DNA from: Pirellulales bacterium
Lineage (GTDB): Bacteria > Planctomycetota > Planctomycetia > Pirellulales > DATAWG01
Assembly: GCA_038210495.1 (NCBI GenBank)
Contig: JBBQWR010000007.1
Location: 1 to 64,000, forward strand
Direction of reading: 5' to 3'
DNA: 64,000 nt
Both the position numbers and the translations under genes were made by a program. This document shows positions 3,422-33,912 of this stretch, piece after piece. The notes under the pieces were generated by a model. That model was not told the origin of the DNA and did not search any database. It worked only from the letters and a program-made list of their open reading frames with translations. Each line of letters opens with the position of its first letter. Within the stretch, counting starts at the first letter, position 1.

Positions 3422-3473
3422 GGCGAGCGAAGTCGAATGAACCGTCCGGTGTCGGCTGCCGCGGTCGACGTTA

Positions 3474-3556
3474 GAGCCGCGCACGAAGTAAGCGCGGTTG
3501 CACCGACTCGCTCGGCTGGCCCGTCACCCGCCATGTGCTTACTTCGTGCGCGGCTC
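3474..3556. terminator. Long hairpin: arms AGAGCCGCGCACGAAGTAAGCGCGG / GCTTACTTCGTGCGCGGCTCT with a ~37-nt loop, between ffh and rpsP
   Basis: Near-perfect ~22-bp inverted repeat read directly from the sequence. A second copy of the same arm sequence lies at 60129-60200. Confidence 0.5.
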
Positions 3557-3748
3557 TAGCGTCGCAAAAATTTCTCGATCGACCGCCGTTTTACCGGTCG
3601 CATTGCCGTGGCGAAATTTGTATAGTGTTAGTTTCGCCATTGGCGACAGCCATGAGTAGGGTGGGCACTGCCCGCATTTCTTGGCCGCTTCGGCGTGCAT
3701 TTTCGGTGGGCAATTCCCCCCTACATTGATTTTCAGGAGACGACGAGC

Positions 3749-5189: not shown

Positions 5190-5300
5190 CGAACACTCGC
5201 AACTTGAGGCCTTCGTCATTCGTGTTTCGCCTTTAGACATTGATTAGACCTTCGTTATTAGACATTACATATTTGACTTAGACATTGCGAATACGAACGA
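5141..5300. repeat. Intergenic block of TGACGAA(TG) heptamer-like repeats and TTAGACAT repeats, including hairpin 5181-5224
   Basis: gacgaatgtctagtcaatgacgaatgctcaaatgacgaatgacgaac... then cttcgtcattcgtg; ttagacat occurs 3 times. A closely related block lies at 35071-35285. Confidence 0.6.
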
Positions 5301-5317
5301 ATTCAAGGAATCATGCC

Positions 5318-5722
5318 ATGAGTCAGCAAATTCTTGCTTTGGTCGAAAAGAGCAGTCTGAAGGCCGAGCCGCCGAGGTTCGAAATCGGCGATACGGTCGA
5401 CGTCCACACGCGGATTCTGGAAGGCGAAAAAGAGCGAATCCAAATCTTCTCGGGCGTCGTCATTGCCCGCAGCGGCTCCGGCACGCGAGAGATGTTCACG
5501 GTCCGCCGGATCGTGCAGAGCGAAGGGGTCGAGCGCAAGTTCCCGCTCCACTCGCCCAAGATCGCCAAGGTCGAGGTCAAGCGGTCGGGCGTCGTTCGGC
5601 GAGCGAAGCTGTATTTCCTCCGCGATCGCATCGGCAAGGCTGTCCGGTTGCGCGAACGCCGCGGCGAAAATGTCGTCGAAGGTTTGGCCAGCGTCCCCAA
5701 GTCCGGCAAAAAGTCGAAGTAG
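5318..5722 (+). CDS. rplS: 50S ribosomal protein L19
   Basis: MSQQILALVEK...FEIGDTVDVHTRI...RRAKLYFLRDR is typical L19. AAGGA lies upstream of the ATG. Confidence 0.9.
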   Translation: MSQQILALVEKSSLKAEPPRFEIGDTVDVHTRILEGEKERIQIFSGVVIARSGSGTREMFTVRRIVQSEGVERKFPLHSPKIAKVEVKRSGVVRRAKLYFLRDRIGKAVRLRERRGENVVEGLASVPKSGKKSK

Positions 5723-5754
5723 CGGCGGCGGTCAACCCGCCTATTTCCTCCCCC

Positions 5755-6198
5755 ATGCGGCGTCGCTCCATGCGCCTGCTCGACAACCTACAGAGCGTCT
5801 GGCGCGACTGGTTCGGCCCGAAGACGCTCGGGCAGCAGGGCGAAGTCATCGCCGCCCGCTATCTGAAAAAGCTCGGCTATAAAATTATCGCCCGGGGCTC
5901 GCACGTCCATCGGGGCGAGATCGACGTCATCGTCGTCGACGTGCGGACTATCGTTTTTGTCGAGGTGAAAACGCGGCGGTCGCACGATCGCGGCCATCCC
6001 GCCGATGCTGTCGGCCGCGAAAAACAATATCGGCTAACTCGATTGGCCATGGTCTACCTGAAGCGAAACGGTCTACTCGAATGCCAAAGTCGCTTCGATG
6101 TCGTAGCCATCACCTGGCCGAAGACGCAACGCCGGCCGATAATCGAGCATTTCAAGAATGCATTCGAGCCCACGTCGCAGGGGCAGATGTTTTATTGA
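5755..6198 (+). CDS. YraN family endonuclease-like protein (UPF0102)
   Basis: GEIDVIVVDVRTIVFVEVKTRRS core motif. The position downstream of rplS matches the common trmD-rplS-(rnhB)-yraN neighbourhood. Confidence 0.7.
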   Translation: MRRRSMRLLDNLQSVWRDWFGPKTLGQQGEVIAARYLKKLGYKIIARGSHVHRGEIDVIVVDVRTIVFVEVKTRRSHDRGHPADAVGREKQYRLTRLAMVYLKRNGLLECQSRFDVVAITWPKTQRRPIIEHFKNAFEPTSQGQMFY

Positions 6199-6421: not shown

Positions 6422-6940
6422 ATGCAAGCAATCCATCTCAGCACAGCCATTGATCGAGGCAGCGAAGTCCAACGAGGCGAGTTGACGATCAACGCCGCCT
6501 TTCTCCAAGAGATCAAAGAAGATAACCGCGAGTTGCGTGAATTGCTCGCCGATTGCCTCGCGGCTTGCGAGCCGGCCGGCTGGCGGCGAACGATCGACCC
6601 GATGAAGCTCACCCGGCTGCTCGGCAAGCTGCGGGATCAACTGGGTATGCATTTCGCGCTCGAGGAAGCCTATGGCTATTTCGACGACGCCGTGTCGGTC
6701 GCCCCCCAGATCAGCCAACGAGCGCTCGAGCTTCGCCAGCAGCATCGCCCTTTGTTCGTGGAAATGTGCCAACTGGTGGACGAGACCGAGCAATTGCGCT
6801 ACCACGAACCCACGAGCGTTCACTGGCAGGATATCGCCGAGAACTTCTTCAATTTCCACGAGCGCTTCCGCCAGCACGAGGCGGCCGAAGACCAACTGAT
6901 CATGCAAATGATCAACGAAGAAATCGGCTGCGGCGACTAA
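6422..6940 (+). CDS. Hypothetical protein, possibly a hemerythrin-like HHE cation-binding domain
   Basis: Start chosen at MQAIHLS. H-x3-E and H...H...E spacing (HFALEEAYGYF; HWQDIAENFFNFHERFRQHEAAED). Assignment is weak. Confidence 0.45.
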   Translation: MQAIHLSTAIDRGSEVQRGELTINAAFLQEIKEDNRELRELLADCLAACEPAGWRRTIDPMKLTRLLGKLRDQLGMHFALEEAYGYFDDAVSVAPQISQRALELRQQHRPLFVEMCQLVDETEQLRYHEPTSVHWQDIAENFFNFHERFRQHEAAEDQLIMQMINEEIGCGD

Positions 6941-6952
6941 TGCCCCGTGGCG

Positions 6953-6980
6953 AGCGGGGAGCGTAAGCTCCCTGTCCCCG
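6953..6980. repeat. REP-like palindromic element GAGCGGGGAGCGTAAGCTCCCTGTCCCC (hairpin GGGAGC-GTAA-GCTCCC)
   Basis: Lies 13 nt after the stop codon. Other family members at 15039-15068, 19808-19835, 40705-40730 and 58953-58980. Confidence 0.6.
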
Positions 6981-7112
6981 ACGCAATCTCCTTCTCACGC
7001 GCATTCGTGTTCGAAGGTTCGCCGCAATCGTTTTCCGCCCGACTTCGGCGTCCATTCCCCTTGCCCTGGGCTAGTTTGTTGTGCCCCTTCGGGGCATAAG
7101 CAATGGCGAAAC

Positions 7113-8837
7113 CTACTTTACCGCCACCGGCAACCGATACACCGCATACGAAGGGTTCTCATATTCCGCCTTGGCATTCCATCGCGGCATGTCCGGCAAT
7201 TGTTGCACGATCGCATAGTGCGCACGATATTGACTCGCCAACTCGTTGAGGCGGGCCGGCGTCAATTGCCCCAGCGATTCGCGCCATAGCGTTGGCGGCA
7301 GATCGGGCGACAGACCGTGAATATCGCTCAGCCGCTGAGCCCATTGTTTGATGCTCGCCGCGTCCTGCGGGATGTCTTTCCAGTTCACCACTTCGGCGCG
7401 CTCGGCGTGCCAGCGGAGCGTCGCCGAGAGCCGCGGCGTGAAAAATACCGCGTCCGGCGGCGTGTTGTTTTTGATCCACTCGCATGCTTTCAGCCAATCG
7501 TCGTAATTCATATTTTTGTCCGACCGCGGCACAACCGGCGCGGCGTTGTTTGCAAGCAGCGAAATCGGCAGATGCTGCGTTTGAAAGCCCAAGTCGCCGA
7601 GAACGATCAGCGCGAGCCCTGCGACCCAATAGTGTGCGACGAGCAAGCCGGATTGTCGGGGGCCAATGCGGGCTTGCCCAGCAGCGCCGCCTGTAATCTC
7701 GCTTGACGAAGCACTGCTGGACAAGCCAGTCGTGGCGCCCCATCCTATTTGCGCGAGCCACCACAAGCCCACGAGCGACACGCCCATGGGAATCAGCACA
7801 TCGGTCATGCGGAACCAATAGAATCGCAACAGCGCCGCGGCAATGTCGGGCGACATGTACGACAATCCCACGAGCGCATATCCGGCCAACGTCAGGAGCA
7901 ACGAAGCGCTCGCGAACCATCGCAACCGTCGCTGGGCCGGATCGCTCGGCGCGGCGGTCACCATCGTGAGCCACAGCCCGCAAAGCAATAGATGCCGGCT
8001 GGGAAATCCTTCTCGGAATTTGTCGGCCGATAGATGATGCGGCAGTCGCTTCAGATAAACGTCATTCGCAAGCCGAACCGTCTCCGCATCGACTCCGCGG
8101 TTGAGCGAGAGCGCGAACCACAGCCCTGGCAAAGCCAGTAAGAATCCAGCTGCGAGTCCCGGCGCGATCTTGCGGAGCGGCGGACGAGCATCGCCTGCTC
8201 CGAGCCACGCCACGACCGCGGCCAGCGTCGACCAGCCGCCGACGATGACATGCAGCGAACTGGCCAAGCCGAGAAAGATCCACGCTCGGTTCCACCGCTC
8301 GCGCAGGATCGCTTCCAAAGCCAGAAACACCAGCGCATACGAAAAGCCCTTGGCTTCGATTCCCCCGATGACCCACTCGCCGGCCATGTGGGCATTTTCG
8401 TTAAGCAGAACAAACAAGCCGGCGGTCAACACGGCAAACCACGCTCTGGGTAGCACGACCCAGCTAAGCCGCCGCCAAGTCCAGGCCAGCAGGGCCCAAG
8501 TGACGAGCCGCCCCACCCAGGCCACTTGCTCGAGCGGGAGCCATTTGATCAGCCAGCCGAACGTCCAATAAAATACCTGATGGGCATCGGCCGTATTGAC
8601 GAAAAAGTCGTTCGCGCACCAAGCCGGATTCCAATAATGCTTGGCCTTGGACAAATAGTGACATTCGTTGACATCCGGCACGGGCCAGGCGCCGTGCAAC
8701 GCAAACACGCCAAAGATCAACACAACCTCGGCCGCGGCCAACCAAATCCGCCCGGCGGATGAGACTCGGGCCGGCTGCGAAGCGGAGAGAACGTCATTCA
8801 TGCGGGCGGCGCCGGTTTCGACCAGGAGATTGTGCAA
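7113..8837 (-). CDS. Large polytopic membrane protein, possibly a GT-C-fold glycosyltransferase (ArnT/PMT-like)
   Basis: ~12 predicted hydrophobic helices, an acidic first-loop motif (DVNECHY) and a ~170-aa C-terminal soluble domain. The start codon is uncertain; an internal Met at ~8801 is possible. Confidence 0.5.
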   Translation of the reverse strand: MHNLLVETGAARMNDVLSASQPARVSSAGRIWLAAAEVVLIFGVFALHGAWPVPDVNECHYLSKAKHYWNPAWCANDFFVNTADAHQVFYWTFGWLIKWLPLEQVAWVGRLVTWALLAWTWRRLSWVVLPRAWFAVLTAGLFVLLNENAHMAGEWVIGGIEAKGFSYALVFLALEAILRERWNRAWIFLGLASSLHVIVGGWSTLAAVVAWLGAGDARPPLRKIAPGLAAGFLLALPGLWFALSLNRGVDAETVRLANDVYLKRLPHHLSADKFREGFPSRHLLLCGLWLTMVTAAPSDPAQRRLRWFASASLLLTLAGYALVGLSYMSPDIAAALLRFYWFRMTDVLIPMGVSLVGLWWLAQIGWGATTGLSSSASSSEITGGAAGQARIGPRQSGLLVAHYWVAGLALIVLGDLGFQTQHLPISLLANNAAPVVPRSDKNMNYDDWLKACEWIKNNTPPDAVFFTPRLSATLRWHAERAEVVNWKDIPQDAASIKQWAQRLSDIHGLSPDLPPTLWRESLGQLTPARLNELASQYRAHYAIVQQLPDMPRWNAKAEYENPSYAVYRLPVAVK

Positions 8838-11422: not shown

Positions 11423-11518
11423 CGTAGGTCAGGTATCCTGCCTGACGCACGGTGTTCTCATCTTACCGAGTGGTTCGATCATCTAACCTGGTTGTCAGGC
11501 AGGATGCCTGACCTACGT
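11423..11518. terminator. Bidirectional terminator candidate: inverted repeat CGTAGGTCAGGTATCCTGCCTGAC / GTCAGGCAGGATGCCTGACCTACG, each arm itself a GTCAGGCA-N5-TGCCTGAC palindrome
   Basis: ~24-bp arms separated by ~45 nt between convergent glnB (+) and the ABC permease (-). Confidence 0.5.
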
Positions 11519-13147
11519 TCGGCGATGCGAGACAAATGCTGCCCCCGCCAGGGTCAGCCCGAGCGCGCCGGTCACGAGCAGAATGCACAGACCGGCCAGT
11601 TCGTTTTGAATGTTGAAGTGCAACAGTTGGGAGATGCGCACGCCGAGCGTCATCACTCCCGGTGGCACGACGAGGATCGTGGCCGACAATTCCCCGATTC
11701 CAATAATCACCGCAGCTAACCAAGCCCAGGCGATCGCCTGGCAGCGCATCGGCAAGACCACGGCGAAAAATCGACGCCCGGCGCTGGCGCCGTCCAACGC
11801 CGCGACGTCGAGCAGGTCTTGGGGCACGGTTCGGAAGACGTGCCAAAGTAGCAGGATGGCGATCGGCAGTCCGCGAATCGCCTGCGCGATGGCCACGACG
11901 GCGATCGTGCGGTCGTAGAGAAAATTCAAAAGCGGCAGAGAGCGATCGTTAAAAAGCTCGATCAGCCAACCTCCCACCAGAGGTCCCGGAATAGCCATCC
12001 CCGCCACCGCGACAAGCAACGCCGCCTGGGCCATCAAGCCGCTGCGCCGAGCTAACCAACCAAGCGGCGTGGCGATCATCAAGACCAGGACGCCAGCCGT
12101 CGTGGCGATCGTCAGCGACCAGCCGATTTCGCGGTGATATCGCAGCGCGCTGCCCGCGACAATTTCCCAACATCGGCCTGCCGACCAACTACGCAGATAT
12201 CCACCAACGCTCGGTGCGACGGTCATCCCCGCTTTGCAAATCAAATTCAGTAGCGGCACACCCACCACCGCCAACCCAATGGCCACCACTAATATGCCCA
12301 GCGGCCAGCGAGCCCGGCCTAGCCGATACACCAGCGGTGGACGAGCCGTCCACTGCGGCCGCCAACTGGCGATGGCGCTACAGAGCCATGCGCCGCATGC
12401 AATCAAGCATCCGGTGAGAGCCACGCCAATCAGCGTCGGCGGAGGAGTTTGTCCCGGCTCGGCCAAGAGCGCGAACTGCGTGTAAACCTCCTCGGCATAG
12501 GTCCGCAGTCGTGTGGCGCCGACCTGAAATAAATCGGTCACGGTCATATCGGTGGCGACACCGATCGCGACCCAGATCGCCGCCAGACCAGTTGCCGGCA
12601 GAGCGTGCGGCAGCGTCACGCGCCACAGCACTTGCCCGGGCGACCCATCGAGCAGCGCCATCTCCTCGAGCTCCGGTTCTACGAATCGGACCACCAATCC
12701 CACGATAAACGCAACCCAGGGGATCGCGGCCAGTCCATGCACCCAAATCGCGCCGGCCCAGCCTTCGAGCAGCCCCGGCTCATAGGGCCCGGCTGTGAAC
12801 AAGGTATACCAGCCCGACATGCCAAATCCGGCTTGCCATCCGGCGGCTTGAAGATAAAGCGGCATGACCATCAAGCTGGCTAACAATCCGGCCACGAGCG
12901 TGCGAAACGGAAGGTCAGTTCGAAACAGCGCGAGTCCCAGAAGCACACCAACCAGCAGGCCGATCGCCAGCGTTCCGGCGACAAGAAACAGCGTGTTCTC
13001 AACGAGCGACCAGCTTCGAGCATCGGCTGAGAGTCTGGCGATAAGCAGCGGAGCGGCGGCGACAACGACGTAGGTCAGGCCAGTGGCTTGACGAGTTGCC
13101 ACGCGATGCCAGAATTTGAGTAAACACATCGTGGCGAAGCGAAGCAT
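11513..13147 (-). CDS. ABC transporter permease with two fused transmembrane domains (iron(III)/thiamine FbpB-like type)
   Basis: 544 aa. Two repeated ABC-TMD units with EAA-like loops (e.g. LLDVAALDGASAGRRFFAVVLP). No cognate ATPase or binding protein lies adjacent in the window. Confidence 0.7.
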   Translation of the reverse strand: MLRFATMCLLKFWHRVATRQATGLTYVVVAAAPLLIARLSADARSWSLVENTLFLVAGTLAIGLLVGVLLGLALFRTDLPFRTLVAGLLASLMVMPLYLQAAGWQAGFGMSGWYTLFTAGPYEPGLLEGWAGAIWVHGLAAIPWVAFIVGLVVRFVEPELEEMALLDGSPGQVLWRVTLPHALPATGLAAIWVAIGVATDMTVTDLFQVGATRLRTYAEEVYTQFALLAEPGQTPPPTLIGVALTGCLIACGAWLCSAIASWRPQWTARPPLVYRLGRARWPLGILVVAIGLAVVGVPLLNLICKAGMTVAPSVGGYLRSWSAGRCWEIVAGSALRYHREIGWSLTIATTAGVLVLMIATPLGWLARRSGLMAQAALLVAVAGMAIPGPLVGGWLIELFNDRSLPLLNFLYDRTIAVVAIAQAIRGLPIAILLLWHVFRTVPQDLLDVAALDGASAGRRFFAVVLPMRCQAIAWAWLAAVIIGIGELSATILVVPPGVMTLGVRISQLLHFNIQNELAGLCILLVTGALGLTLAGAAFVSHRRT

Positions 13148-13377
13148 CCCGGAGGGATGCCAGACGGTAGCCGGCGGTAAGGCCGTACGCGGCCGACACC
13201 GCCGGTTTGGCGATAGCGCGAGCTATTCGACCCCGGCAGGGGCCGCAGAATTGCGCTAACAGGGGGCCGGTTGTCTGCGACCCCTGCCGGGGTCCATTCA
13301 TTCGTTGAGACGTGTAAACCGGCGGTGTCGGCCTAAAGGCCTCTGCCGCCGGCTACCATCTGGCATCCCTCCGGGAT
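13145..13377. repeat. ~233-bp nested imperfect palindrome (33-bp terminal inverted repeats plus two inner stem pairs); MITE-like or structured RNA
   Basis: CATCCCGGAGGGATGCCAGACGGTAGCCGGCGG (13145-13177) is the reverse complement of 13345-13377 with 1 mismatch. Inner pairs: GGCCGACACCGCCGGTTT with AAACCGGCGGTGTCGGCC, and GACCCCGGCAGGGGCCGCAG with CTGCGACCCCTGCCGGGGTC. Confidence 0.6.
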
Positions 13378-13527
13378 GCGTTTCCGATCGTCAAGTCACA
13401 CCGGAAAGTTACCTAATTCGACAGCGCACTTTCGCTGACCCGTCGCTGAATTCGTGAGAATTCAGATTCCTGCGGCGGACAATATCTCGGAATTCTCACG
13501 AATTCCGCTACGAAATGCACGATAGTG

Positions 13528-14931
13528 CTAATACTGGTCCCCGCCACCGAGTTTTTCTTCAATCTTGTCCGCTTGCCACGCGATGGCGGTGAGGACTTGT
13601 GAGAAGAGCGGGCCGGTGAGCGAATCGGCCATCACGCTCCCTTGCAGGGTAACCATCTCTCGATCGCCGACTTTCTCGAACGCGAACGCCCCGTGGACCA
13701 GCTTCGAGTTGTATCGCAAGAGGGCTTGGGCGTTCTCCTCGCTTGCCACGCCACAGGTCGAGCGGAACGAGACGACCGCGTGTCCCCCTTCGTCGTGCTG
13801 ACCAAACGCGATCGTCACCGTTTGTTTGCGCAGCGCGCCGACGGGCACCGTTACTTGCCAACTGTCGCCGCTCTCGTCGAGCTTATAACTGCCGGCCGAG
13901 ATAACGCCGCGAACCAGTTGCCGCGGATCGGTCGGCGTGGAAAGATCGAGATCGTCGAACGACGGAAGCCCGGCGCCGGCCGTGGACGCCGTCGCGGCGG
14001 CAGCGGCAGTTTGCGGCGGCGCGGGTTGCGGCGCGTAGGGCTGCTGCGGCGCCTGTTGTGGATACGAAGTCTGCGGCGTTGCGCCTGCGGCCATTGCATC
14101 GCGGATCATACCGGGCATCATCATGCCAAAACCGGCGCCGAAGCCCATTCCCATCGGGCCATTGGCGCCGCCGCCCCCCTGCTCCGCCATCTTGGCCATG
14201 CTTTGGGCGGCCTGAAATTTCATAAAGGCGTTGAGATCACCCACGGCCCCCATCGAGCTCCGCGAGTCGATCGCTTGCTGGACTTCATCGGGCGGCGTGA
14301 TCGCGTTAATGAAGAAATCGACCAGCTCCAAGCCATACTTGGCGAAGTCCGCAGTGACTTTAGCCCGCGTGCCCGAGGCGATTTGCTCGTAGTGGGTCGG
14401 CATGTCGAGAAGGCTGAGGCCCGAGGCGCCCAGCATGTCGGCCATTCGGGACACGATCAAATCGCGGAGAAACGACGTCACGGCATCGGTCGTGTATTTG
14501 CCTTGCGTGCCCACTAGCGTGTTGAGCAGGACCGCGCTATCGGCGACCCGCAACGAATACTTTCCGAACGAGCGAAGCCGGACCATGCCGAAATCCTTGT
14601 CGCGAAATACGATCGGCTGCGGCGTGCCCCATTTTTGGTCGACGAACGTCTGCTTGCCGACGAAATAAACCGATGCCTGGAACGGCGACTTTTCCCAGGG
14701 GATCGTCAATATCCGCGTGAGAATCGGCACATTAGCCGTGGTCAGCGTGTGCCGGCCGGGCGGAAAGCTGTCGAGCGCCTTGCCGTCGCGGAAGAAGACT
14801 CCCTCCTGGTGTTCTTGCACGATGAGTTGGGCGCCGTACTTGATGTCGGCGGAGCCTTCTTGGGGAATCCGCTGAACCAGCGTTTGGTTCGACTCGTCGA
14901 AAAATTGGATGACTTCGAGCCGAAGGCCCAT
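13528..14931 (-). CDS. SPFH/band-7 domain protein with a Gln/Pro/Ala-rich linker and a C-terminal YbjN-like domain
   Basis: The N-terminal ~250 aa resemble SPFH (Band_7_1 type: [26 protein letters not shown]...). A low-complexity linker ([23 protein letters not shown]) follows. The C-terminal ~130 aa resemble the YbjN/putative sensory transduction regulator fold. Confidence 0.6.
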
Positions 14932-23409: not shown

Positions 23410-23429
23410 GGTTTTGCCTCTGGCAAAAA

Positions 23430-23554
23430 GTCGGGAGTCGGGAGACGGGAGTTGAAGCAGCCTCTGCGGCGCCAAGATTGGAGACAGCATAACTTGCGGC
23501 GTCGGGCCGGCGAAGCCGGCTTGTCTCACTCCCGACTCCCGACTCCCGTCTCCC
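23430..23554. repeat. Inverted pair of GTCGGGA-type heptamer arrays (23430-23452 and 23527-23554) forming a ~120-nt hairpin between two minus-strand genes
   Basis: gtcgggagtcgggagacgggagt ... actcccgactcccgactcccgtctcccc. The left arm is ~21 nt 5' of the enoyl-CoA hydratase ATG. The right arm overlaps the last codons of the 23526 gene. Confidence 0.6.
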
Positions 23555-25248: not shown

Positions 25249-28200
25249 ATGAAACGCATGTTCTCGGTAGCGGCGGCCGTTCTTTCGATCACCGTCGGCC
25301 TCGGCGTGACGTTGCGATTGGTCGGCGCAGACGCGAAAGAGGCTCCGGCTCCGCCCGAGACAAAAAAGCCGGCCGCGGCGGCCGACGGCGGCCTGTTCGC
25401 CGTGCCGCATGTGCCGACGAAAATCAGCGAACTGCTGGCGGATCACAAATACGCCGACGCGATTGCGGCCATCGATGCCGCTCGCAAAGACGCCAAAGCG
25501 AAAGATGCCCCCTGGGACTATCTGGCCTATCTCAAGGGCCGGGCCCTGCATCTGGATGGCCAGTACGACGCGGCCGTCAAGCAGTTCACCGCGATGGAAA
25601 AGGAATTTCCAGGCAGCCCCTGGGCTCGCCGCGCTCGATTCGGCAAAGCCGTGTCGCTGGCTCGCAAGGGTGATTTTCGCGCGGCCGAGCTCATCTACCG
25701 CACGGAGGTCGAGTATCTGCTCTCGTCGGCCCGCAAGCAGGAGATCGCCGACCTGTATCTGGAATTCGCCGACGCCTATTTCAAGCCGAAGGACGAAATC
25801 CAGCACAAGCCGGATTACCAAAAAGCGCTTGAGTTCTATCTGAAGGCCTTGGAGGTCGGCCCGCAGAACGATCGCCGGGCCGAGATCGAACTGCAGACGG
25901 CCCGCAGCTATCAATTGCTCAATCAACTGCCCGAGGCGGCTAAGCGATTTAGCCAGTTCATCAAGGACCATCCCGGCCTGCCGGCCGTGATCGAGGCCCG
26001 ATTCCGCTTGGGCGAGGTTCAGCTAGCGCAGAGCCAACAGCAAGAGGCTCGCCGCACTTGGCAAGATCTGCTTGCCGCGCATGCCGATTCGAAGTCCGAG
26101 CGAATTCCCGAGGCCGCATATCGCTTGGCGTTTACTTACAACCTACCGAATCCCCAGACCGATGAAGAACTCAGCCTCGGCATAAGCACGCTCGAATCGT
26201 TTATTAAAAATTATCCGGATCACAAGCTCGCGTCGCAGGCCCATCTGCTCATCGCCAATAGCTACATCGCCCGCGGCCGGTACGAAGACGCGGTCAAGTC
26301 GTTGATTCGGTTCCTGGCCGACAAGCGTTACGCCGATCGCGAGGAAGTGGCCGACGCCCGGAATCTGCTCGGCCGTTCGTACCAACTCCAGCGAAAGTTC
26401 ACCGCCGCGCTCGAGGCTTGGCGCGATTATCTGACCAAGCATCCCTCGCATCACGCTTGGAGCGACGTGCAGCGCGAGATCGTCAACACGGAATACCTGA
26501 TGGCCGACGACAAGGCCCAGGCGAAGCAATACGACGAAGCCCGCAAGCTGTGGAACGATTTTCTCGCCAAATATCCGCTCGATCCCCGCGATCCGCAGAT
26601 TCTTTATCTGTTCGGCTGGATGAACTACCAGCAGGAAAGATTTCCCGAGGCGAACAGCGACTGGCGTCGGCTGGCGTCAAAATATCCGGGCACTGAGCCG
26701 GCCCAGCGCGGCCAACTCATGATCGCCGCGACGCTCGAAGGCAAGCTCGGCAAGCTGGAAGAGGCGCTCCAGGAATACAAAAAGGTCCAGCCGGGCAATT
26801 GCCAAAATCTGGCCCAAATGGCCATCAACCGGCTCACGGCCAAGAGCATGGCGATCGTCACCGAGCGGGTATTTCGCAGCGACGAGACTCCCAAGATTAA
26901 GCTCACCAGCCGCAACATCGAGTCGGTCACCGTCCGGGCCTACAAGGTCGATCTTGAAACCTATTTCCGCAAGATGCACGTCGTCCAAGGGGTCGAGGGA
27001 CTCGACATCGCCCTGATCGATCCGGACAAAACGTTCGAATTCAAGATCCCCAAATACAATGAGTATCAGCAGGTCGAGAACGAGATCGAGCTACCGCTGT
27101 TCAAAGACATAGCCAAGGATGCGGCCAACGCCGACGCCAAAGACGCCGGCAAGCTGACGCCCTCTGGCGCCTGGGCCGTCACGGTGAGCAGCAAGACGCT
27201 CGAAGCCACAACGCTAGTATTGCAAAGTGACCTGGACCTGATCGTCAAAAGCTCGCGCGATGAGCTGTTCGTGTTCGCCGAAAACATGCGGACCGGAAAA
27301 CCCTGGCCGGGCGTAAAACTCTTACTCTCCAATGGCCAGCAGGTGTTTGGCGAAGTCGCCTGCGGCGCCGATGGCGTGCTCAAGCAGTCGTTCAAGGAGC
27401 TCAAGGGAGCCGGCGACGTGCGGGTCTTCGCGCTGGCCGACGGGGGCGTGGCGTCGAATGTCGTTAGTCTACAGGGGGTTGGCGTCGCTCAAGGGCTCGT
27501 CGACAAGGGTTACATCTACACCGATCGGCCCGCCTATCGAGCCGGGCAGATTGTGCATGTTCGCGGCATTCTGCGGCGGGCGGTGGACGACAACTACACG
27601 GTCGAAAAGGGGAAGAAGGAGACCGTCGAGGTCTACGATCCGCGCAGCCGGCTGATCTGGCAGGAAGAGACCAAGCTGTCGGACGTCGGGAGTCTGCACA
27701 TGTATTTTACGCTCCCGGCGACCAGTCCCGTGGGGCCGTATCGCGTGGTGGTCCACGATGACGAGGGGCACAGCCACGCGGGCGGGTTCACGGTGCACGA
27801 GTATCAGATCGACCCGGTGCGGCTGTCGGTCGATATCGATCGCCACGTGTTCTATCGGGGGGAAGAGATCGAAGGGACGATTCGGGCCGCGTTCTACTAC
27901 GGGGCGCCGCTCGCCGACCGCGAAGTGACCTATAAGCTGGCCGACGGCCGCGTGAATAGCGCCAAGACCGACGACAAGGGAGAGGTGCATTTCAAGCTGC
28001 CGACCCGCGACTTCCGCGAGACGCAGACGCTACCGCTGGTCGTCACGCTGGCCGAGCGGAATCTGACGACCGTGCAGAATTTCTTCCTGGCGACGCAAGG
28101 GTTCGCGATCAGCATGAGCACAGTCCGGCCGGTGTATGTGGCCGGCGAAACGTTCGAGGTGACGCTCAAGGCGATGGACGCGGAGAACAAGCCACTCGCT

Positions 28201-31200
28201 CAAAAACTCACGCTCAATGTGCTTGAGCGGACGGTCGTAGATGGCAAGGTCGGCGAGAAGCAGGTCGATACGTTTGAAGTGGCGACCGACGCCAAGGACG
28301 GAACGGCGCGTAAGACGCTCAAGCTCGAAAAGGGCGCCGAATATATCTTGCGAGCCGAAGGCATCGATCGGTTCAAGAACCCGGTGGTCGGCCAGTATCG
28401 GATCAAGATTTCCGATGAGAACGACAGCGTGCGGCTGCGCATCTTGGCCGATCGGCACACGTACAAAGTCGGTGACGCGGCCGACGTGCAACTGCACTGG
28501 CGCGAGAAGCCGGCCCTGGCGCTGGTCACGTTCCAAGGCGCGCGAGTGCTCGATTATCGGCTCGTGCAACTGGAGACCGGGGCGAACAAGCTGGCGATTC
28601 CCATGTCGGCCAAGCTCGCGCCGAATTTTGATCTCACGGTCGCGGTCATGACCGACGCCGGGCGACTGGAAAAGGGGCTAGGGGCAGGTGATGGGACTAG
28701 GGAGAAGAAGGCAGGCGGAAACGATGCAGTTAAGTTACCGGAGAGTCCGCTTAAGGTGGCGAAGGCGCCGGCGAAGCGATTTCATGAGGCTTCGAGTCCG
28801 TTCAGCGTCGAGCGGCAACTTACGCTGAAGCTTGAAACCAAGCGGAAGGAGGGGGCGAAGGGCGCCATTCGGCCGGGCGAAGAGGTGGAACTGGTCATCG
28901 TCGCCACCGATCCGCAAGGCAAGCCGGTCGCGGCCGAGGTCAGCCTTGGGATGGTCGAACAGGCGCTCTTGAATATGTTCCCGCCGAACGTGCCGGCGAT
29001 CGATGAATTTTTCAAAGGCGTGCCCCGGCAATCGGCGCTTCACACTTCGACCAGTGTCGTATTTGGCTATTTCCCCGCAACGCATCCGATCGATCGGCAT
29101 TTGCTTTCGGAGGTCCAGCGGCAAGAGATTGCGAAGGAGGAGGCGGAGAGCACGGCAGTGCGCACGCGCCTATTACTGCAGGCGCAACAACAGGCGGCGA
29201 ACCAATCCGATGCAACTCCCGCGCTCGTCATTCAAGAGGAAGCAGCAGAACAGTTGCTGGGCTCGGAACAGCCGAGAGCACAAGCCGGCGCTCTCTTTAC
29301 GGACGGAAGCACCGGGATTCAAGCCGGCGGGATCGCAGGCTCTGGCGGCCTTGGCAATGTTGACTTAGCTTTAGACGGGGTTCACGCCTATGGATGGACT
29401 GGCGACCAACATAACTCTGGCGAGGCGGCCGCCAATGAAGATCGAACTACCGCGGCCGTCGCTTACACGGATCAGGCGGCGATTCCCTTTCCGGTTAAGC
29501 CCGGAATTCAATATCCAACTCACGCTCAGGGGCGGACGTTGACGCGGGATCGCATGCGTTATAGTCAACTTCAAGTCGATCCAAGCGGCGGCGTCGGAGG
29601 CGGGGCTTCTGCCGGTGGATGGGCAGCAAATTCAAATAGGCCAGCAGCTTCGACGCCAATTGGCCGGACGCCTCAACTTGGGGCCGTCCCGCATATGAAT
29701 CGACTGTTCGACATGCCCCCGCAGCTTGGCCGAACGAGTGGCGAATTGGAATATGCGTTGAATGGCGGCGATTTGAGCGACAACTACGCCGTCGTTGCTC
29801 AAGACGGTAGCCAGCGGAATTGGTCGTTCGGCGCCAACTGGGCGCTTGGAGACGGCGGTCGCAAGGAATTGGCCGCCAAACGTGTCGCGGAATTGCAAAC
29901 GGCGATCGCCAATAAGGCGCTCGTCACGCCGCAGCGCGGGTTGGTCGAAACGGCTTATTGGAATCCGGCGATTGTCACCGACGACAAAGGCCGGGCGAGC
30001 GTCACGATCTCGATGCCCGATCAATCGACGGCCTGGAAGCTATCGGCCAAGGGAATCACGGCCGATACGCTGGCCGGCGAAGGGGAATTGGATCTGGTAG
30101 TGAAAAAGGACCTGTTCGGCGAATTGAAACTGCCGACGGCGTTCACCGACGGCGACGACGCCCAGATTCTCGCGACGATCCACAACGGCCTGTTGGACAA
30201 GGGTCAGATCGAGGTCACGCTCAAGACGACGATGGGCGGCAAGTCGACCGAGGAGAAAAAGACGATCGACGTCACGGCCACAGGGTTGTCCGAGTTGACG
30301 TTCCCGCTCGCCGTTCGCCGCCCGACCGCGGATGACAAGGCCGAGAAGAAGGTCGACGCCAAGAAAGAGGACAACCCGGCCGACGACAGCCAGGTGACGA
30401 TAGAGTTATCGGTCTCCTCGGGCGCCGAGCGCGACGTGGTTCGCCGCGTCGTGCCGATTCATCCTTACGGCATGTCGGTCTACGCGACGGCCGGCGGCGC
30501 CGCGTCCTCCGACACCACCGTGTGGGTCGAGGCGCCCAAGGACATGCCGCTGGCGGCCCCAAGCCTCCAGATTCTCGTCGGGCCGACGATTCAGCAGAGC
30601 CTCTTGGACGTGCTGTTTGGAACCGCGCCAACCTGTGAGATTGATGTGCTCCGGTCTGCCTCGGCGCTGGATTCGCCGGCCAGCGATCTGATGGCCGCGC
30701 TGGCTCTGCAAAAGCTGATCAATACGACCCGCGACGCTGGCAACCCGCAAGCCCGGTTGCTCGACGATCGGGTCCGCTCGGCAATCAGCCTGCTTGTCTC
30801 ATCGCAACTGGACGATGGCAGTTGGAGTTGGGGCGGCCAAGGCCTTCAAGCACAGGCCGCTCAAGGTCATCGCCTGGGGACGGCCCGCGTGATTTGGGCG
30901 CTTTCGCTGGCCAAATCGGCCGGCTACAAACTGCCCGGCGAGCAGTTCGAGAAGGGGCTGACGTTCCTGCAAAGCCAAATCGCGACCACTGCCGAGACCG
31001 ACTACGAAACCAAGGCCGTGCTCTTGCACGCCCTGGCCGCGGCGGGGCGCGGTGACTTCACGCTGGCCAATCGGCTGTATCGCAATCGCCCGGCGCTCAC
31101 GACCGCCGCGCTCGTGTATCTCTCGCTGGCGCTAGCGGAGATGGACCACCAGCCGATGGCCGAGGATCTTTTGAAACTGCTCGATCAGCGGAATTTGGAT

Positions 31201-33912
31201 GACGAAGACGCCACGGGCAAGCTCGGCTCGCTCGCTTGGAGCCGATCGTCGGCCGAGATTCGGTCTCTCTATGCGCTGGCGCTGGAACAAGTGCTGGCCG
31301 ATAGCCCCAAGCTCAAACTGCAAGTCGATTGGCTGATGACCCATCGCACGGGCCATCGCTGGTCGCCCGACAAAGCCACCGGGCCGGCCACGCTCGCGCT
31401 CGCCCGCTGGTTCGCCAAGACCCAGTTCGACGACGAGCATTACAAGCTGACCGTCACGGTCAACGACGTGGAAGTGAAGACGCTTGACATCGACAAGAAT
31501 TCGGGCGGTCTGGTCGTCGATGTGCCCGCCCACGCGCTAGTCGCCGGCAAGCAGCGGATTCACTTCGGGCTCATCGGCCGCGGCCGATATACGTTCCAAG
31601 CGATTCTGAGCGGCTTCGTGGATGCCGACAAACTGAAGGGCACGATGCAAGGAGTCGTCGTCAACCGGTACTATGAGCCGGCCCCGATCGAGCTCGACGG
31701 CAAGGAAATTCCTCGTGGATTCGGCGTCCTGCAAGGCTCGTACACGTCGTTCCGCAATCCGCTCACGCAACTGGCCGTCGGCAAGCGGGGACATGTCGAA
31801 CTCCAGATCGATCGCCCGTACGAACCGACGATGCGAGAAGAATACTGGGTCGTTACCGAGCCCCTGCCCAGCGGAGTAACCGTGATCGAAAACTCGATCA
31901 GCGGCAATTTCGAGCGGTTCGAGCTCGGCGCCGGCGCGATCACCTTCTATCTCCGGTCGTCGACGACATCGAGCCGGATTCACTTCGACGTCCACGGCTA
32001 TCTGCCGGGCCAATATCGCGCGGCGCCCACCGTGGTCCGCGACGCCTATCGGCTCGACAAGATGGTCGTGGCCGCCGCGACAAAACTGACCGTGCTGGCC
32101 CTCAACGCCAAGAGCGCCGACGCCTATCGCCTCACGCCGCAGGAATTGTATGAGCTGGGCAAGCGATACTTCGAGAAGGCGGATTACAAAGCGGCCGGAG
32201 AGCATCTCACCGAGCTAATGGCCAAGTGGAACATCCAGCCGGAGGTGTACAAGGAAACGGCCCGGATGCTCTTGGACATCCACTTGCAAACCGGCCCGCC
32301 GGCGCAGGTCGTGCATTACTTCGAGATCATCAAGGAGAAGTGGCCGGAGCTCGAATTCCCGTTCGAGAAAATCGTCAAGGTGGCGACCGCTTATCACGAG
32401 ATGGGCGAGTACGAGCGGAGCTACCTGGTCTTCCGCGCCACGGCCGAGAGCAGTTTTCTGCGCGAAGCGGCCGTCGGCGGGTTCTTGGAATCGCAGGGTG
32501 AATTTCTGCGGAGCATCGCGTTCATGAACCGGCTGCTGGCCGAATATCCCCCCGAGCCGTATGTGGTGGCGGCGACGTTCGCCCTCTCGCAGCGGGTCTA
32601 TGGCATGGCGCCCAAGGCGGCCGATGACCCAAAACTCCGCGAGAAGAAGATCAACAAGGTCGATCTGATCGGGCAGGCCGTCGCTATGCTCGATAATTTT
32701 CTGTCCGATTACCCCGACGACCCGGCCGCCGATCAGGCCTCGTTCTCGCTAGCCAATGCCCTGTTGGAACTTAAGTCGTACAAGGAAGTGATCGCCCGGG
32801 CGACCAAATTCGCCGCCCGGTATCCCAAGAGCGATTATCTCGATAGTTTCTGGTACATCGTGGCCTACGGTCATTTCGCCTTGGGGGAGCATGAGCAGGC
32901 CCTGACGATGGCCAAGAAGGTGGCCGAGGCCAAGCGGATCGATAAATTATCGGGCCGCGAGACCGAAAGCCCCAACAAATGGGAAGCGATCTACATCATG
33001 GGCCAGGTGTACCACAGCCTGGGGAAGGCGGCCGAGGCGATCGTCGAATATACGCGAGTCGCCGATCGGTTCGCCGACGCGAAGGAGGCCATCGCCTATT
33101 TCACGCGCAAGGAAATCACATTGCCCGAAGTGACGGTGATCCGCCCGGCTGACGCTGCCGAGGTGGAACTCAAATTCCGCAATGTCGCCACCGCCGACGT
33201 GAAACTGTACCGAATCGACCTGATGAAGTTCGGCCTGCTGAAGCGTAATCTGGCCGGGATCACGCAGATCAATCTGGCGGGGATTCGACCGTTCTTCGAG
33301 AGCAAGCTCGAGCTCGGCGATGGGAAGGATTTCCGCGACCGCACGCACAAGATCGCGCTGCCGATCAAGGAAGAAGGCGCCTATCTGATCGTCTGCCGCG
33401 GCGGCGATCTATATGCCAGCGGGCTGGTGCTGCTCAGCCCGCTGTCAGTCGAAGTGCAAGAAGACGCCTCGGCCGGGCAGGTGCGCGTCACGGTGAAGAA
33501 CGTGCTCAAGGACACCTACATCTCGGACGTCCAGGCCAAGGTGATCGGCAGCCGGAACGAGGACTTCGTGTCCGGCGAAACGGATCTCCGCGGCGTGTTC
33601 GTGGCCCAAGGGGTGCGCGGCGCGAGCACGGTGATCGCCCAAGCGGACAGCGGGCGTTATGCGTTCTTCCGCGGCAAGACCGAGCTTGGCCCACCGGAAC
33701 CGGCCGCATCGCCGCCGGCTCCGGCCAAGCAGTCCGAACAAACCGACAATCAGATGGAAAAGCCCCAGCAAGGCGAGAATCGCCGGGGCGACAATGGCCT
33801 GCTCGACAATCTGCAACGGGGCAACAACTCGTTGCAAGACTTCAACAACGACAAGCTGCAGAATTTCTATAAGCAGAACAAGAGTGGCGTGAAGGCGAAG
33901 GAGGCGTATTGA
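25249..33912 (+). CDS. Giant secreted TPR / alpha-2-macroglobulin / TPR fusion protein (2887 aa)
   Basis: Signal peptide. N-terminal TPR repeats (YbgF-like), then MG-type beta-sandwich repeats, then an A2M/TED-like region (LVSSQLDDGSWSWGGQG alpha-alpha toroid motif) and receptor-binding-like domain (cf. the 1..619 fragment). A second TPR block and a C-terminal beta-rich domain follow. No obvious CxEQ thioester motif was seen. Low-complexity Gln/Ala/Gly insert at ~29150-29800. Confidence 0.8.
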   Translation: MKRMFSVAAAVLSITVGLGVTLRLVGADAKEAPAPPETKKPAAAADGGLFAVPHVPTKISELLADHKYADAIAAIDAARKDAKAKDAPWDYLAYLKGRALHLDGQYDAAVKQFTAMEKEFPGSPWARRARFGKAVSLARKGDFRAAELIYRTEVEYLLSSARKQEIADLYLEFADAYFKPKDEIQHKPDYQKALEFYLKALEVGPQNDRRAEIELQTARSYQLLNQLPEAAKRFSQFIKDHPGLPAVIEARFRLGEVQLAQSQQQEARRTWQDLLAAHADSKSERIPEAAYRLAFTYNLPNPQTDEELSLGISTLESFIKNYPDHKLASQAHLLIANSYIARGRYEDAVKSLIRFLADKRYADREEVADARNLLGRSYQLQRKFTAALEAWRDYLTKHPSHHAWSDVQREIVNTEYLMADDKAQAKQYDEARKLWNDFLAKYPLDPRDPQILYLFGWMNYQQERFPEANSDWRRLASKYPGTEPAQRGQLMIAATLEGKLGKLEEALQEYKKVQPGNCQNLAQMAINRLTAKSMAIVTERVFRSDETPKIKLTSRNIESVTVRAYKVDLETYFRKMHVVQGVEGLDIALIDPDKTFEFKIPKYNEYQQVENEIELPLFKDIAKDAANADAKDAGKLTPSGAWAVTVSSKTLEATTLVLQSDLDLIVKSSRDELFVFAENMRTGKPWPGVKLLLSNGQQVFGEVACGADGVLKQSFKELKGAGDVRVFALADGGVASNVVSLQGVGVAQGLVDKGYIYTDRPAYRAGQIVHVRGILRRAVDDNYTVEKGKKETVEVYDPRSRLIWQEETKLSDVGSLHMYFTLPATSPVGPYRVVVHDDEGHSHAGGFTVHEYQIDPVRLSVDIDRHVFYRGEEIEGTIRAAFYYGAPLADREVTYKLADGRVNSAKTDDKGEVHFKLPTRDFRETQTLPLVVTLAERNLTTVQNFFLATQGFAISMSTVRPVYVAGETFEVTLKAMDAENKPLAQKLTLNVLERTVVDGKVGEKQVDTFEVATDAKDGTARKTLKLEKGAEYILRAEGIDRFKNPVVGQYRIKISDENDSVRLRILADRHTYKVGDAADVQLHWREKPALALVTFQGARVLDYRLVQLETGANKLAIPMSAKLAPNFDLTVAVMTDAGRLEKGLGAGDGTREKKAGGNDAVKLPESPLKVAKAPAKRFHEASSPFSVERQLTLKLETKRKEGAKGAIRPGEEVELVIVATDPQGKPVAAEVSLGMVEQALLNMFPPNVPAIDEFFKGVPRQSALHTSTSVVFGYFPATHPIDRHLLSEVQRQEIAKEEAESTAVRTRLLLQAQQQAANQSDATPALVIQEEAAEQLLGSEQPRAQAGALFTDGSTGIQAGGIAGSGGLGNVDLALDGVHAYGWTGDQHNSGEAAANEDRTTAAVAYTDQAAIPFPVKPGIQYPTHAQGRTLTRDRMRYSQLQVDPSGGVGGGASAGGWAANSNRPAASTPIGRTPQLGAVPHMNRLFDMPPQLGRTSGELEYALNGGDLSDNYAVVAQDGSQRNWSFGANWALGDGGRKELAAKRVAELQTAIANKALVTPQRGLVETAYWNPAIVTDDKGRASVTISMPDQSTAWKLSAKGITADTLAGEGELDLVVKKDLFGELKLPTAFTDGDDAQILATIHNGLLDKGQIEVTLKTTMGGKSTEEKKTIDVTATGLSELTFPLAVRRPTADDKAEKKVDAKKEDNPADDSQVTIELSVSSGAERDVVRRVVPIHPYGMSVYATAGGAASSDTTVWVEAPKDMPLAAPSLQILVGPTIQQSLLDVLFGTAPTCEIDVLRSASALDSPASDLMAALALQKLINTTRDAGNPQARLLDDRVRSAISLLVSSQLDDGSWSWGGQGLQAQAAQGHRLGTARVIWALSLAKSAGYKLPGEQFEKGLTFLQSQIATTAETDYETKAVLLHALAAAGRGDFTLANRLYRNRPALTTAALVYLSLALAEMDHQPMAEDLLKLLDQRNLDDEDATGKLGSLAWSRSSAEIRSLYALALEQVLADSPKLKLQVDWLMTHRTGHRWSPDKATGPATLALARWFAKTQFDDEHYKLTVTVNDVEVKTLDIDKNSGGLVVDVPAHALVAGKQRIHFGLIGRGRYTFQAILSGFVDADKLKGTMQGVVVNRYYEPAPIELDGKEIPRGFGVLQGSYTSFRNPLTQLAVGKRGHVELQIDRPYEPTMREEYWVVTEPLPSGVTVIENSISGNFERFELGAGAITFYLRSSTTSSRIHFDVHGYLPGQYRAAPTVVRDAYRLDKMVVAAATKLTVLALNAKSADAYRLTPQELYELGKRYFEKADYKAAGEHLTELMAKWNIQPEVYKETARMLLDIHLQTGPPAQVVHYFEIIKEKWPELEFPFEKIVKVATAYHEMGEYERSYLVFRATAESSFLREAAVGGFLESQGEFLRSIAFMNRLLAEYPPEPYVVAATFALSQRVYGMAPKAADDPKLREKKINKVDLIGQAVAMLDNFLSDYPDDPAADQASFSLANALLELKSYKEVIARATKFAARYPKSDYLDSFWYIVAYGHFALGEHEQALTMAKKVAEAKRIDKLSGRETESPNKWEAIYIMGQVYHSLGKAAEAIVEYTRVADRFADAKEAIAYFTRKEITLPEVTVIRPADAAEVELKFRNVATADVKLYRIDLMKFGLLKRNLAGITQINLAGIRPFFESKLELGDGKDFRDRTHKIALPIKEEGAYLIVCRGGDLYASGLVLLSPLSVEVQEDASAGQVRVTVKNVLKDTYISDVQAKVIGSRNEDFVSGETDLRGVFVAQGVRGASTVIAQADSGRYAFFRGKTELGPPEPAASPPAPAKQSEQTDNQMEKPQQGENRRGDNGLLDNLQRGNNSLQDFNNDKLQNFYKQNKSGVKAKEAY

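Follow-up and report, generated by a model that had tools for sequence, protein, structure and literature searches.

A nested palindrome between an SPFH gene and an ABC permease gene of a Pirellulales bacterium is probably a gene-less copy of a Y1 transposase-associated repeat family

Introduction

In 2010 Nunvar reportedly described repetitive extragenic palindromic (REP) elements together with REP-associated tyrosine transposases (RAYT). REP elements, REPINs, and the RAYT enzyme, also named TnpA-REP (Bertels & Rainey 2011, PMC3116915; Ton-Hoang/Messing 2012, PMC3479197), are the closest described counterparts of the sequence analyzed here, a nested palindrome of 236 bp situated between a gene for an SPFH protein and a gene for an ABC permease of a Pirellulales bacterium (GenBank assembly GCA_038210495.1). 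The analysis covered positions 1 to 64,000 of contig JBBQWR010000007.1; this 64-kb stretch is referred to as the window, and positions without a locus name are those of the window. We consider it likely that the palindrome is a gene-less, nonautonomous REP/REPIN-like copy of a repeat family which is associated with Y1 transposases, and that it was mobilized in trans by a Y1 enzyme.

Several other systems have to be compared with this palindrome. The insertion sequences of the IS200/IS605 group end in two different hairpins; both are located on one strand, without inversion. The BIMEs of E. coli and the enterobacterial ERIC/IRU elements are mosaic intergenic palindromes consisting of several hairpin units; they are often transcribed within operons and influence the fate of the mRNA. 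For ERIC we know of no transposase partner.

REPIN-RAYT systems are described as mostly vertically inherited within lineages in the abstract of a preprint (bioRxiv 10.1101/2022.05.22.493013). For the PVC superphylum, passages of Di Nocera et al. (2013, PMC3733652) report GTAG-tagged REP families in R. baltica, O. terrae, and Planctomyces spp., and for R. baltica many tyrosine transposase genes with flanking repeats. Among the TnpA-Y1 enzymes, subclass 1.2 is reported to lack REPs and to occur mostly in Cyanobacteria and Bacteroidetes, and the class 3 genes of Planctomycetes and Acidobacteria have atypical hairpins on their flanks, which bear a CnGA foot and can be highly repeated (Quentin et al. 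2018, PMC6006769).

Results and Discussion

The palindrome is built of two inverted half-units with three hairpins each

Read inward, the left half-unit comprises an outer hairpin, the foot CAGA, the sequence GG-TAGCC, a middle hairpin, a spacer of about 20 nt, an inner hairpin, and the sequence GCAGA; the right half-unit is its mirror image (Table 1). As single-stranded DNA (ssDNA) each half alone folds into three local hairpins. An earlier prediction, made from the sequence of the window (the original prediction), had already recognized a nested palindrome of three layers with at most one mismatch per arm and a loop at about 13261. This architecture was confirmed, whereas the extent had to be corrected: instead of 233 bp (13145-13377) with arms of 33, 18, and 20 nt, the element comprises 236 bp (13144-13379) with arms of 34, 18, and 21 nt.

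The arms were found solely at the two expected sites each in the window, and shuffled sequences predict 0.00, 0.12, and 0.00 matches for the 34-, 18-, and 21-nt arms, respectively. The folding energy of the palindrome amounts to -191.6 kcal/mol for the minus strand and -196.3 kcal/mol for the plus strand, compared with -113 and -116 +/- 5.3 kcal/mol for shuffled sequences. This corresponds to a z-score of about -14.8, and none of 200 shuffles reached the native energy. From the uniqueness of the arms and from the folding energy, each relative to shuffled sequences, a chance origin of the palindrome can be ruled out.

When the two halves are compared with each other, the hairpin modules are 92-95% identical, the spacer 43%, and the centre 25%. 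A recent duplication of a whole arm would have resulted in a uniform identity. The near identity of the modules next to a diverged spacer and centre therefore identifies the hairpin modules as the conserved objects.

Table 1. Features of the nested palindrome, its flanking genes, and related repeats in the 64-kb window
Feature	Position	Strand	Description
Whole nested palindrome	13144-13379		236 bp; two half-units in inverted orientation flank a 24-nt centre; from inverted-repeat search, folding, and model R1
Outermost arms	13144-13177 / 13346-13379		34 nt, 97% complementary, 1 mismatch
Second arms	13191-13208 / 13316-13333		18 nt, 100% complementary, 0 mismatches
Innermost arms	13229-13249 / 13274-13294		21 nt, 95% complementary, 1 mismatch
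Left half-unit	13143-13251	+	three hairpins; R1 70.7 bits, E 6e-16, model positions 1-103
Right half-unit, inverted	13272-13380	-	R1 67.2 bits, E 4.4e-15, model positions 1-103
Outer hairpin with CAGA foot	13144-13164	+	GCATCCC-GGA-GGGATGC; foot at 13161-13164
TAGCC foot with middle hairpin	13168-13205	+	foot preceded by G (GTAG); CCGGCGGT (13171-13178) / ACCGCCGG (13198-13205)
Inner hairpin with (G)CAGA foot	13229-13249	+	GACCCC-GGCA-GGGGCC
Nonconserved centre	13250-13273		24 nt, midpoint about 13261; site of the Y1 transposase gene in full-length relatives
Mirror inner hairpin	13274-13294	+	TCTGC, then GACCCC-TGCC-GGGGTC
Mirror middle hairpin	13319-13355	+	CCGGCGGT / CCGCCGG, then GGCTA (reverse complement of TAGCC)
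Mirror TCTG foot with outer hairpin	13359-13379	+	GCATCCC-TCC-GGGATGC
Second, diverged pair of the same superfamily	33962-34156		foot AGCC, middle hairpin CAGGGC-AAC-GCCCTG; between 2887-aa gene and convergent gene
Possible half-unit (solo or truncated) from the diverged subfamily	7032-7098	-	TGCCCCGAAGGGGCA...TAGCCCAGGGC; weak (R1 19.2 bits, E 0.003)
SPFH/Band_7_1 gene	13528-14931	-	domain match E 7.5e-64
ABC permease ORF (longest), BPD_transp_1	11513-13147	-	domain match

The palindrome belongs to a repeat family present in several phyla

The outer hairpin including its foot (GCATCCCNNNGGGATGCCAGA, a 21-mer with free loop and 18 specified bases) was searched for in one genome per GTDB species (species representatives). 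More than 119 stretches with this exact motif were among the matches listed, and about 17 matches would be expected in random sequence according to a rough estimate. Most of the listed matches belong to metagenome-assembled genomes (MAGs) of Planctomycetota and Verrucomicrobiota; Acidobacteriota, Lentisphaerales, BRC1, and a small number of other groups account for the rest. A single MAG contributes at least 11 of the listed loci with one exact hairpin variant. A few matches are situated in coding sequence and look like chance occurrences (e.g., loci L013 and L089). Uniqueness together with a lack of conservation had been named as the outcome that would speak against the original prediction; what was found instead are many copies in other genomes.

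The family loci share a common layout. An outer hairpin with a stem of 6-7 bp is followed by CAG(A/C), about 3 nt, (G/T)TAGCC, CCGGnGGT-loop-ACCnCCGG, about 20 nt, the inner hairpin, CAGA, a variable centre, and the mirror image. Inner hairpins of the type GACCCCnnnnGGGGTC, GCACCCCnnnnGGGGTGC hold the same position in other members of the family. Within the fetched loci and the window, 246 of the 296 matches to TAGCC[AG]GN[GT]G are accompanied by a complementary arm not more than 60 nt away.

For a covariance model, R1, 70 diverse half-units of other genomes were aligned, leaving out the window. Since both halves of the palindrome match this model of foreign sequences over its full length (Table 1), we assign the palindrome to the family. 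In the R1 alignment 16 of 22 stem pairs are changed on both sides. Paired cells account for 95.7%; after a shift of the partners by 1-3 columns the value is 31-53%. The paired fraction of 95.7% is inflated by the choice of the seed units, which were required to form three perfect hairpins; the count of 246 in 296 is unaffected by this choice. The central pair of the middle stem covaries (U-A 42, G-C 24, C-G 3, A-U 1), and the stem occurs as GGTGG/CCACC, GGGGG/CCCCC, and GGCGG/CCGCC. For the stem of the outer hairpin the variants GCATCCC, CAACCC, CAAGCC, and GACCCC were observed.

Within 20 nt outside the outer hairpin no base is conserved among 213 units, and hence no conserved target was recognized. 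It follows that the boundary of the family coincides with the ends of the window palindrome. By inspection of the sequence no direct repeat could be found between the flanks of the palindrome, which read ...GCGAAGCGAA on the left and GTTTCCGATC... on the right. The original prediction was therefore correct in that no target-site duplication is present.

The distance between the two middle hairpins falls into two classes. In gene-less pairs it is 100-200 nt (median 134 nt, n = 43) and in pairs enclosing a Y1 gene 450-700 nt (median 553 nt). With 118 nt, the window palindrome belongs to the former class, and we regard it as the empty shell of a Y1 cassette on the basis of this bimodal distribution.

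Empty sites were searched for in all fetched loci with the joined 200-nt flanks of 39 gene-less pairs as queries; none was found. The sole orthologous pair obtained from this search stems from two Planctomycetota MAGs. The elements at L085 (702-885) and L104 (556-894) are 184 and 339 nt long, respectively, and have flanks of 83-91% identity, which shows that the element was shortened by an internal deletion or expanded in place. Among 2.9 million viral contigs (IMG/VR) there was only one match, a solo half-unit, and hence no sign of a phage vehicle. This half-unit (L205, UViG_3300014160_000349, 5240-5370) consists of a CAACCC hairpin, GCAGA, a GG-TAGCC hairpin, a GCATCCC hairpin, and CAGA.

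Full-length members enclose a Y1 transposase gene

In L041 two inverted inner hairpins 536 nt apart enclose an open reading frame (ORF) of 148 aa. The ORF matches Pfam Y1_Tnp (E 3e-19) and the IS200/IS605 transposase of NCBIfam. The closest structures in the PDB are TnpA proteins of the ISDra2 type, 2fyx and 2xm3 (E 1e-7 to 5e-5); E. coli TnpA-REP was not among the PDB matches at E ≤ 0.01. Relatives of this Y1 gene flanked by modules were found in L017, where complete shells are situated on both sides of the gene, and in L025.

An alignment of four such Y1 proteins was used for a scan of metagenomes, from which 80 loci were kept. Where the Y1 protein shares 50% or more identity with the L041 protein, a TAGCC module is located within 700 nt in 47 of 51 metagenome loci, compared with only 3 of the 29 loci with more distant Y1 proteins. 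Usually one module precedes the Y1 gene by 80-100 nt on the plus strand, and another follows it at about 80 nt on the minus strand. The density of the TAGCC motif is 1.15 per kb near the Y1 gene versus 0.037 per kb farther off, a 31-fold difference. L156, L159, and L161 are examples of the full order, in which the outer, the TAGCC, and the inner hairpin precede the Y1 gene and their mirror image follows it. The Y1 proteins associated with the family have a median length of 148 aa and share the motifs DHVH, WQ, and YIxNQxEHH (Y---Q--HH).

L025 is a Verrucomicrobiota contig with two diverged Y1 paralogues (400-1300 and 6600-7700; 58% and 45% identical to the L041 protein) and gene fragments. The same contig also bears tandem copies of another hairpin unit (CAACGTTGAAACGTTGGGCTAGGGTCACTCATCCCTTCGGGATGA).

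Objections and alternative explanations

Some observations weigh against the interpretation as a gene-less copy mobilized by a Y1 enzyme. A tblastn search of the window did not reveal any Y1 gene. In the window the family is represented only by a single close copy, a diverged pair, and a weak solo unit. No filled and empty pair from close strains was present among the recovered loci, and mobility is thus inferred, not observed. The associated Y1 enzyme carries the class-1 signature Y---Q--HH, unlike the class-2 RAYTs with Y---NP which had earlier been tied to REPs. To these the above-mentioned choice of the R1 seed units has to be added.

The orthologous sites bear directly on the question whether the palindrome serves a neighbouring gene. 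The nearest relatives of the permease are encoded in Pirellulales MAGs and show only about 61% identity. In L121 and L122 the SPFH and permease genes are adjacent and separated by a spacer of 111 nt, which contains only an unrelated small inverted repeat and no family member. The SPFH-permease spacer of L124 comprises 767 nt and is likewise free of R1 members, whereas two complete family pairs (125-355 and 2643-2871) occur elsewhere in the same 13.6-kb stretch. In L123 a different gene is present upstream of the permease. The absence of the element from the orthologous spacers of L121/L122 and L124 and its presence elsewhere in L124 suit independent insertions and not a cis-regulator inherited together with the permease.

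The orthologous spacer of L124 contains two small overlapping ORFs (5398-5910), one of which is a called gene of 69 aa. As judged from its sequence the second one reads like a toxin of the ParE/RelE type and would be part of a toxin-antitoxin-like insertion at the orthologous site.

We considered five alternative explanations. First, the palindrome could have been exapted as an RNA element, the hairpin being kept for stabilization or attenuation at the 3' end of the SPFH transcript or for masking the start of the permease gene. Such an exaptation does not conflict with a mobile origin, and the location between two co-oriented genes which are adjacent in relatives as well would suit such a function, as would the extreme stability predicted for the RNA hairpin (-191.6 kcal/mol) and its end 0-45 nt ahead of the candidate permease starts. 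REPs are moreover known to affect mRNA stability, as discussed in passages of PMC3733652. However, the recovered orthologous spacers lack the element, a terminator with a T-run is missing, and the family is found in many unrelated contexts, and we consider an exaptation unlikely.

Second, a full-length Y1 cassette at this site could have lost its gene by deletion without ever having moved as a gene-less form. Gene-less and gene-carrying shells are identical, and the orthologous elements of L085 and L104 (184 and 339 nt) demonstrate a change in length in place. Yet 43 gene-less pairs are opposed to only 3-4 loci with a Y1 gene among the genome matches, and the lengths of the gene-less pairs fall into a narrow class, which would be expected from a multiplication of the short form itself. 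A relic of this kind is rather improbable.

Third, the modules could be maintained as binding sites of a host factor such as gyrase, IHF, or a nucleoid protein; a role of this kind has been proposed for the BIMEs of E. coli. The exact 21-nt hairpin with its foot in several phyla would be unusual for selfish repeats and could be explained in this way. Against a host factor, the modules track the Y1 gene (31-fold enrichment beside it) and also the sequence similarity of the Y1 protein (47 of 51 versus 3 of 29 loci), which makes this explanation very unlikely.

The two remaining alternatives had been put forward by the original prediction. A dedicated cis-regulatory RNA of the permease (riboswitch-like or leader), which is suggested only by the position upstream of the permease and the strong fold, is largely refuted and has next to no probability left: no Rfam family matches at threshold, no conserved copy precedes the recovered permease orthologues, the palindrome folds equally well on both strands, and the family is multi-copy, linked to a transposase gene, and present in many unrelated contexts; the element is not a dedicated regulator of the neighbouring permease. 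It is also not a classical miniature inverted-repeat transposable element (MITE) derived from a DDE transposon, an origin that is scarcely credible in spite of the small size, the 34-nt terminal inverted repeats, and the missing coding capacity, since there is neither a direct repeat at the borders nor a conserved target outside the ends, full-length members enclose a Y1/HUH transposase instead of a DDE enzyme, and the supposed terminal repeats resolve into sets of three hairpin modules with covarying stems. Of the three candidates of the original prediction the MITE nevertheless comes nearest. What holds true of this proposal is that the family is multi-copy and gene-less and has a transposase-carrying form.

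Comparison with described systems

A gene-less, Y1-associated mobile repeat, our preferred interpretation, most closely resembles the REP/REPIN-RAYT systems. The family has short hairpins with feet, and the middle hairpin of the window palindrome carries a literal GTAG foot in both halves (G-TAG-CC, then CCGGCGGT...ACCGCCGG). The inverted doublet can be folded into one long hairpin, the elements are intergenic, present in several copies in other genomes, and without target duplication, and in relatives the enzyme gene is flanked by inverted units, which corresponds to the REPtron arrangement. The family differs from these systems as a half-unit contains three different hairpins and not one, and as two of the feet are CAGA and located 3' of the hairpin. 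Across the family units the base before TAG is T in 53%, G in 37%, and A in 9%, i.e., TTAG is a commoner foot than GTAG. The associated Y1 with its motifs Y---Q--HH and DHVH/WQ differs from the class-2 RAYT clade (Y---NP; PMC6006769). Whereas REPIN-RAYT systems are described as mostly inherited vertically, here one hairpin sequence is common to several phyla. The exact 21-nt hairpin with its foot is shared by Planctomycetota, Verrucomicrobiota, Acidobacteriota, Lentisphaerales, and others. This implies that the recognition hairpin either was transferred horizontally more than once or is under an unusually strong constraint.

The GTAG-type REPs of the PVC superphylum occur in the same host groups, and according to passages of PMC3733652 they likewise often form close inverted dimers that give rise to larger structures. 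The sequences GTAGCC and TAGCCGG are absent from the text and supplements of that paper that were examined, nor do the passages considered here mention a three-hairpin shell. In the literature searched there was no paper describing this shell. The middle hairpin may correspond to one of the GTAG families of PMC3733652, and a prior description is possible.

Concerning the enzyme, the Y1 proteins of the family fit the signature of TnpA-Y1 subclass 1.2 (DH[IV]H, WQ, YIxNQxEHH) with a median length of 148 aa (PMC6006769). In contrast to subclass 1.2, the family has associated repeats and is found in different host groups. The CAGA foot resembles the CnGA foot of the class 3 REPtrons. Nevertheless, class 3 was rejected because its hairpin consensus CnGA-GCCGCGACCGTnAGGGAGCGG and its motifs NHVH, W[TA], and Y----Q do not fit (PMC6006769). 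The hairpin GCCGCGACC-GTnA-GGGAGCGG, which follows the CnGA foot in class 3, is not present either; the window palindrome has other hairpins next to its CAGA foot.

With IS200/IS605 and the gene-less PATEs the family has in common a Y1/HUH enzyme, which is nearest to TnpA of the ISDra2 type, the presumed recognition of subterminal hairpins, and the lack of target duplication. A PATE with unlike ends on the same strand was rejected, as the modules of the family are mirror images about the Y1 genes and the ends of the window palindrome are 97% complementary. The BIMEs and ERIC/IRU elements are comparable in being mosaic intergenic palindromes of several hairpin units but show no sequence similarity and come from different hosts.

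When the region was scanned against Rfam at E ≤ 10, the matches were confined to noise from microRNA-like hairpins and, below threshold, to Acido-Lenti-1 (RF01687; Weinberg 2010, PMC2864571). Both termini match this RNA weakly on the strand with the TCTG hairpin, and the taxa overlap (Acidobacteria, Lentisphaerae). Acido-Lenti-1 was rejected as the scores of 22.4 and 21.4 bits stand against a gathering score of 37 and the resemblance is confined to the hairpin level. In seven family-bearing loci of Acidobacteriota and Lentisphaerales no Acido-Lenti-1 match was obtained at E ≤ 0.1, and at the Rfam gathering threshold only a tRNA was detected in 16 family-bearing loci.

For a REP-rich genome of the Pirellulales type the element is ordinary. 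What may be new is the combination of a three-hairpin shell, a class-1 Y1 enzyme, and the sharing of one hairpin sequence across phyla. We tentatively suggest, with more doubt than confidence, that the family could represent a kind of REPtron which has not been described so far and is intermediate between an insertion sequence and a domesticated REPIN-RAYT system, and in which a Y1 enzyme similar to subclass 1.2 resides in a three-hairpin shell and gene-less shells are scattered. With three hairpins, CAGA and TAGCC feet, and a Y1 protein of 148 aa, the family is a compact and testable system in poorly studied phyla. It could be used to address the choice of substrate by HUH transposases and the spread of REPIN-like elements between phyla. 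In addition, R1 marks repeats that recurrently give rise to broken contigs and to spurious starts of ORFs in MAGs of the PVC superphylum and Acidobacteriota.

Proposed mechanism and possible consequences for transcription

By analogy with TnpA of IS200/IS605 (IS608/ISDra2) and with TnpA-REP of E. coli (PMC3479197; PMC6006769), a Y1 enzyme encoded elsewhere in the genome would bind the footed hairpins on ssDNA, for example on the lagging-strand template. The enzyme would then cut and rejoin the DNA at the hairpins, and the gene-less shell would be copied or moved without target duplication.

If the SPFH and permease genes are cotranscribed, the RNA would carry a hairpin whose end lies 0-45 nt upstream of the permease start and whose predicted energy is about -190 kcal/mol. 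This structure could shield the SPFH mRNA from 3' exonucleases, attract RNase III, or lower the expression of the permease. These effects would be by-products and not the raison d'être of the element. A role as stabilizer in the 3' untranslated region of the SPFH gene, the third candidate of the original prediction, or as its terminator is possible as a side effect, as known for REPs.

The locus and its flanking genes

The spacer between the SPFH and permease genes comprises 380 nt, and the palindrome occupies its permease-proximal end. The genes are co-oriented with the SPFH gene upstream; as both are encoded on the minus strand, the left end of the element adjoins the 5' end of the permease gene. 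Concerning the overlap of the left repeat with the permease start, the original prediction was right in that the ATG of the longest permease ORF (13147-13145) falls within the terminal hairpin. In an alignment with nine homologues, however, the permease is conserved only from about residue 42 onward. The closest homologues begin with M-ADARSW, others 17-25 residues earlier. As judged from this alignment, the true start is probably located downstream, at the ATG at 13129 or the GTG at 13102, i.e., 15-42 nt past the end of the element, and the overlap with the ORF would consequently be an effect of ORF calling. For this locus the identification as a probable selfish repeat removes a false lead: annotators should neither call a riboswitch nor extend the permease ORF into the element.

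Between 12950 and 13700 no terminator-like site, i.e., a hairpin followed by a T-run, was found on either strand. A promoter scan of the spacer with a consensus that does not cover planctomycete promoters yielded one promoter-like site on the plus strand only and no sigma-70-like site on the minus strand.

The spacer contains a second, unrelated hairpin doublet, a canonical REP pair with GTAG feet at 13441-13512. On the minus strand it reads GTAG-C-GGAATTC-GTGA-GAATTCC ... TGAATTC-TCAC-GAATTCA, and as DNA it folds with -22.3 kcal/mol (z -7.2). Judging from REP-encoded peptides in the supplement of PMC3733652, we guess that it may resemble the GTAG family of R. baltica described there. A public contig of 1572 nt with the exact SPFH protein (L001, Logan SRR19962015) stops 34 nt past the stop codon inside this REP doublet, as expected if such repeats break short-read assemblies. 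A canonical REPIN at 11424-11517 overlaps the stop codon of the permease gene (11513-11515). It consists of two inverted copies of GTAG + GTCAGGCA-TCC-TGCCTGAC, which are 47 nt apart and have their GTAG feet directed outward.

Other repeats of the window

For the diverged pair (Table 1), which belongs to the superfamily of the palindrome, the R1 scores of the half-units are 27.3 bits (33962-34055, plus strand, E 3e-5) and 31.2 bits (34063-34151, minus strand, E 3e-6). The 2887-aa ORF (25249-33912) ends just ahead of this pair.

At least four other kinds of hairpin doublet are present within the 64 kb. The doublets at 3466-3564 and 60127-60201 belong to one family (TAGA-GCCGCGCAC-GAAGTAA-G(C)GCGG) and resemble the class 3 REPs with CnGA foot (CAGAGCCGCGACCGTAAGGGAGCG) listed by Quentin et al. 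for Planctomycetes and Acidobacteria. A further doublet at 673-762 is composed of GGGTG-CCACTGCTGG-CTTGT-CCAGCAGTG and its mirror image and has a GGTG-like foot. Other long intergenic inverted repeats are situated at 23429-23551, 35079-35292, and 48986-49147 and consist of AGTCGGGAG repeats, TGACGAATGACGAA repeats, and a pair of 33-nt arms. With 12.6 and 9.1 bits, respectively, the R1 scores are marginal for the arms at 48970-49033 and 49091-49164.

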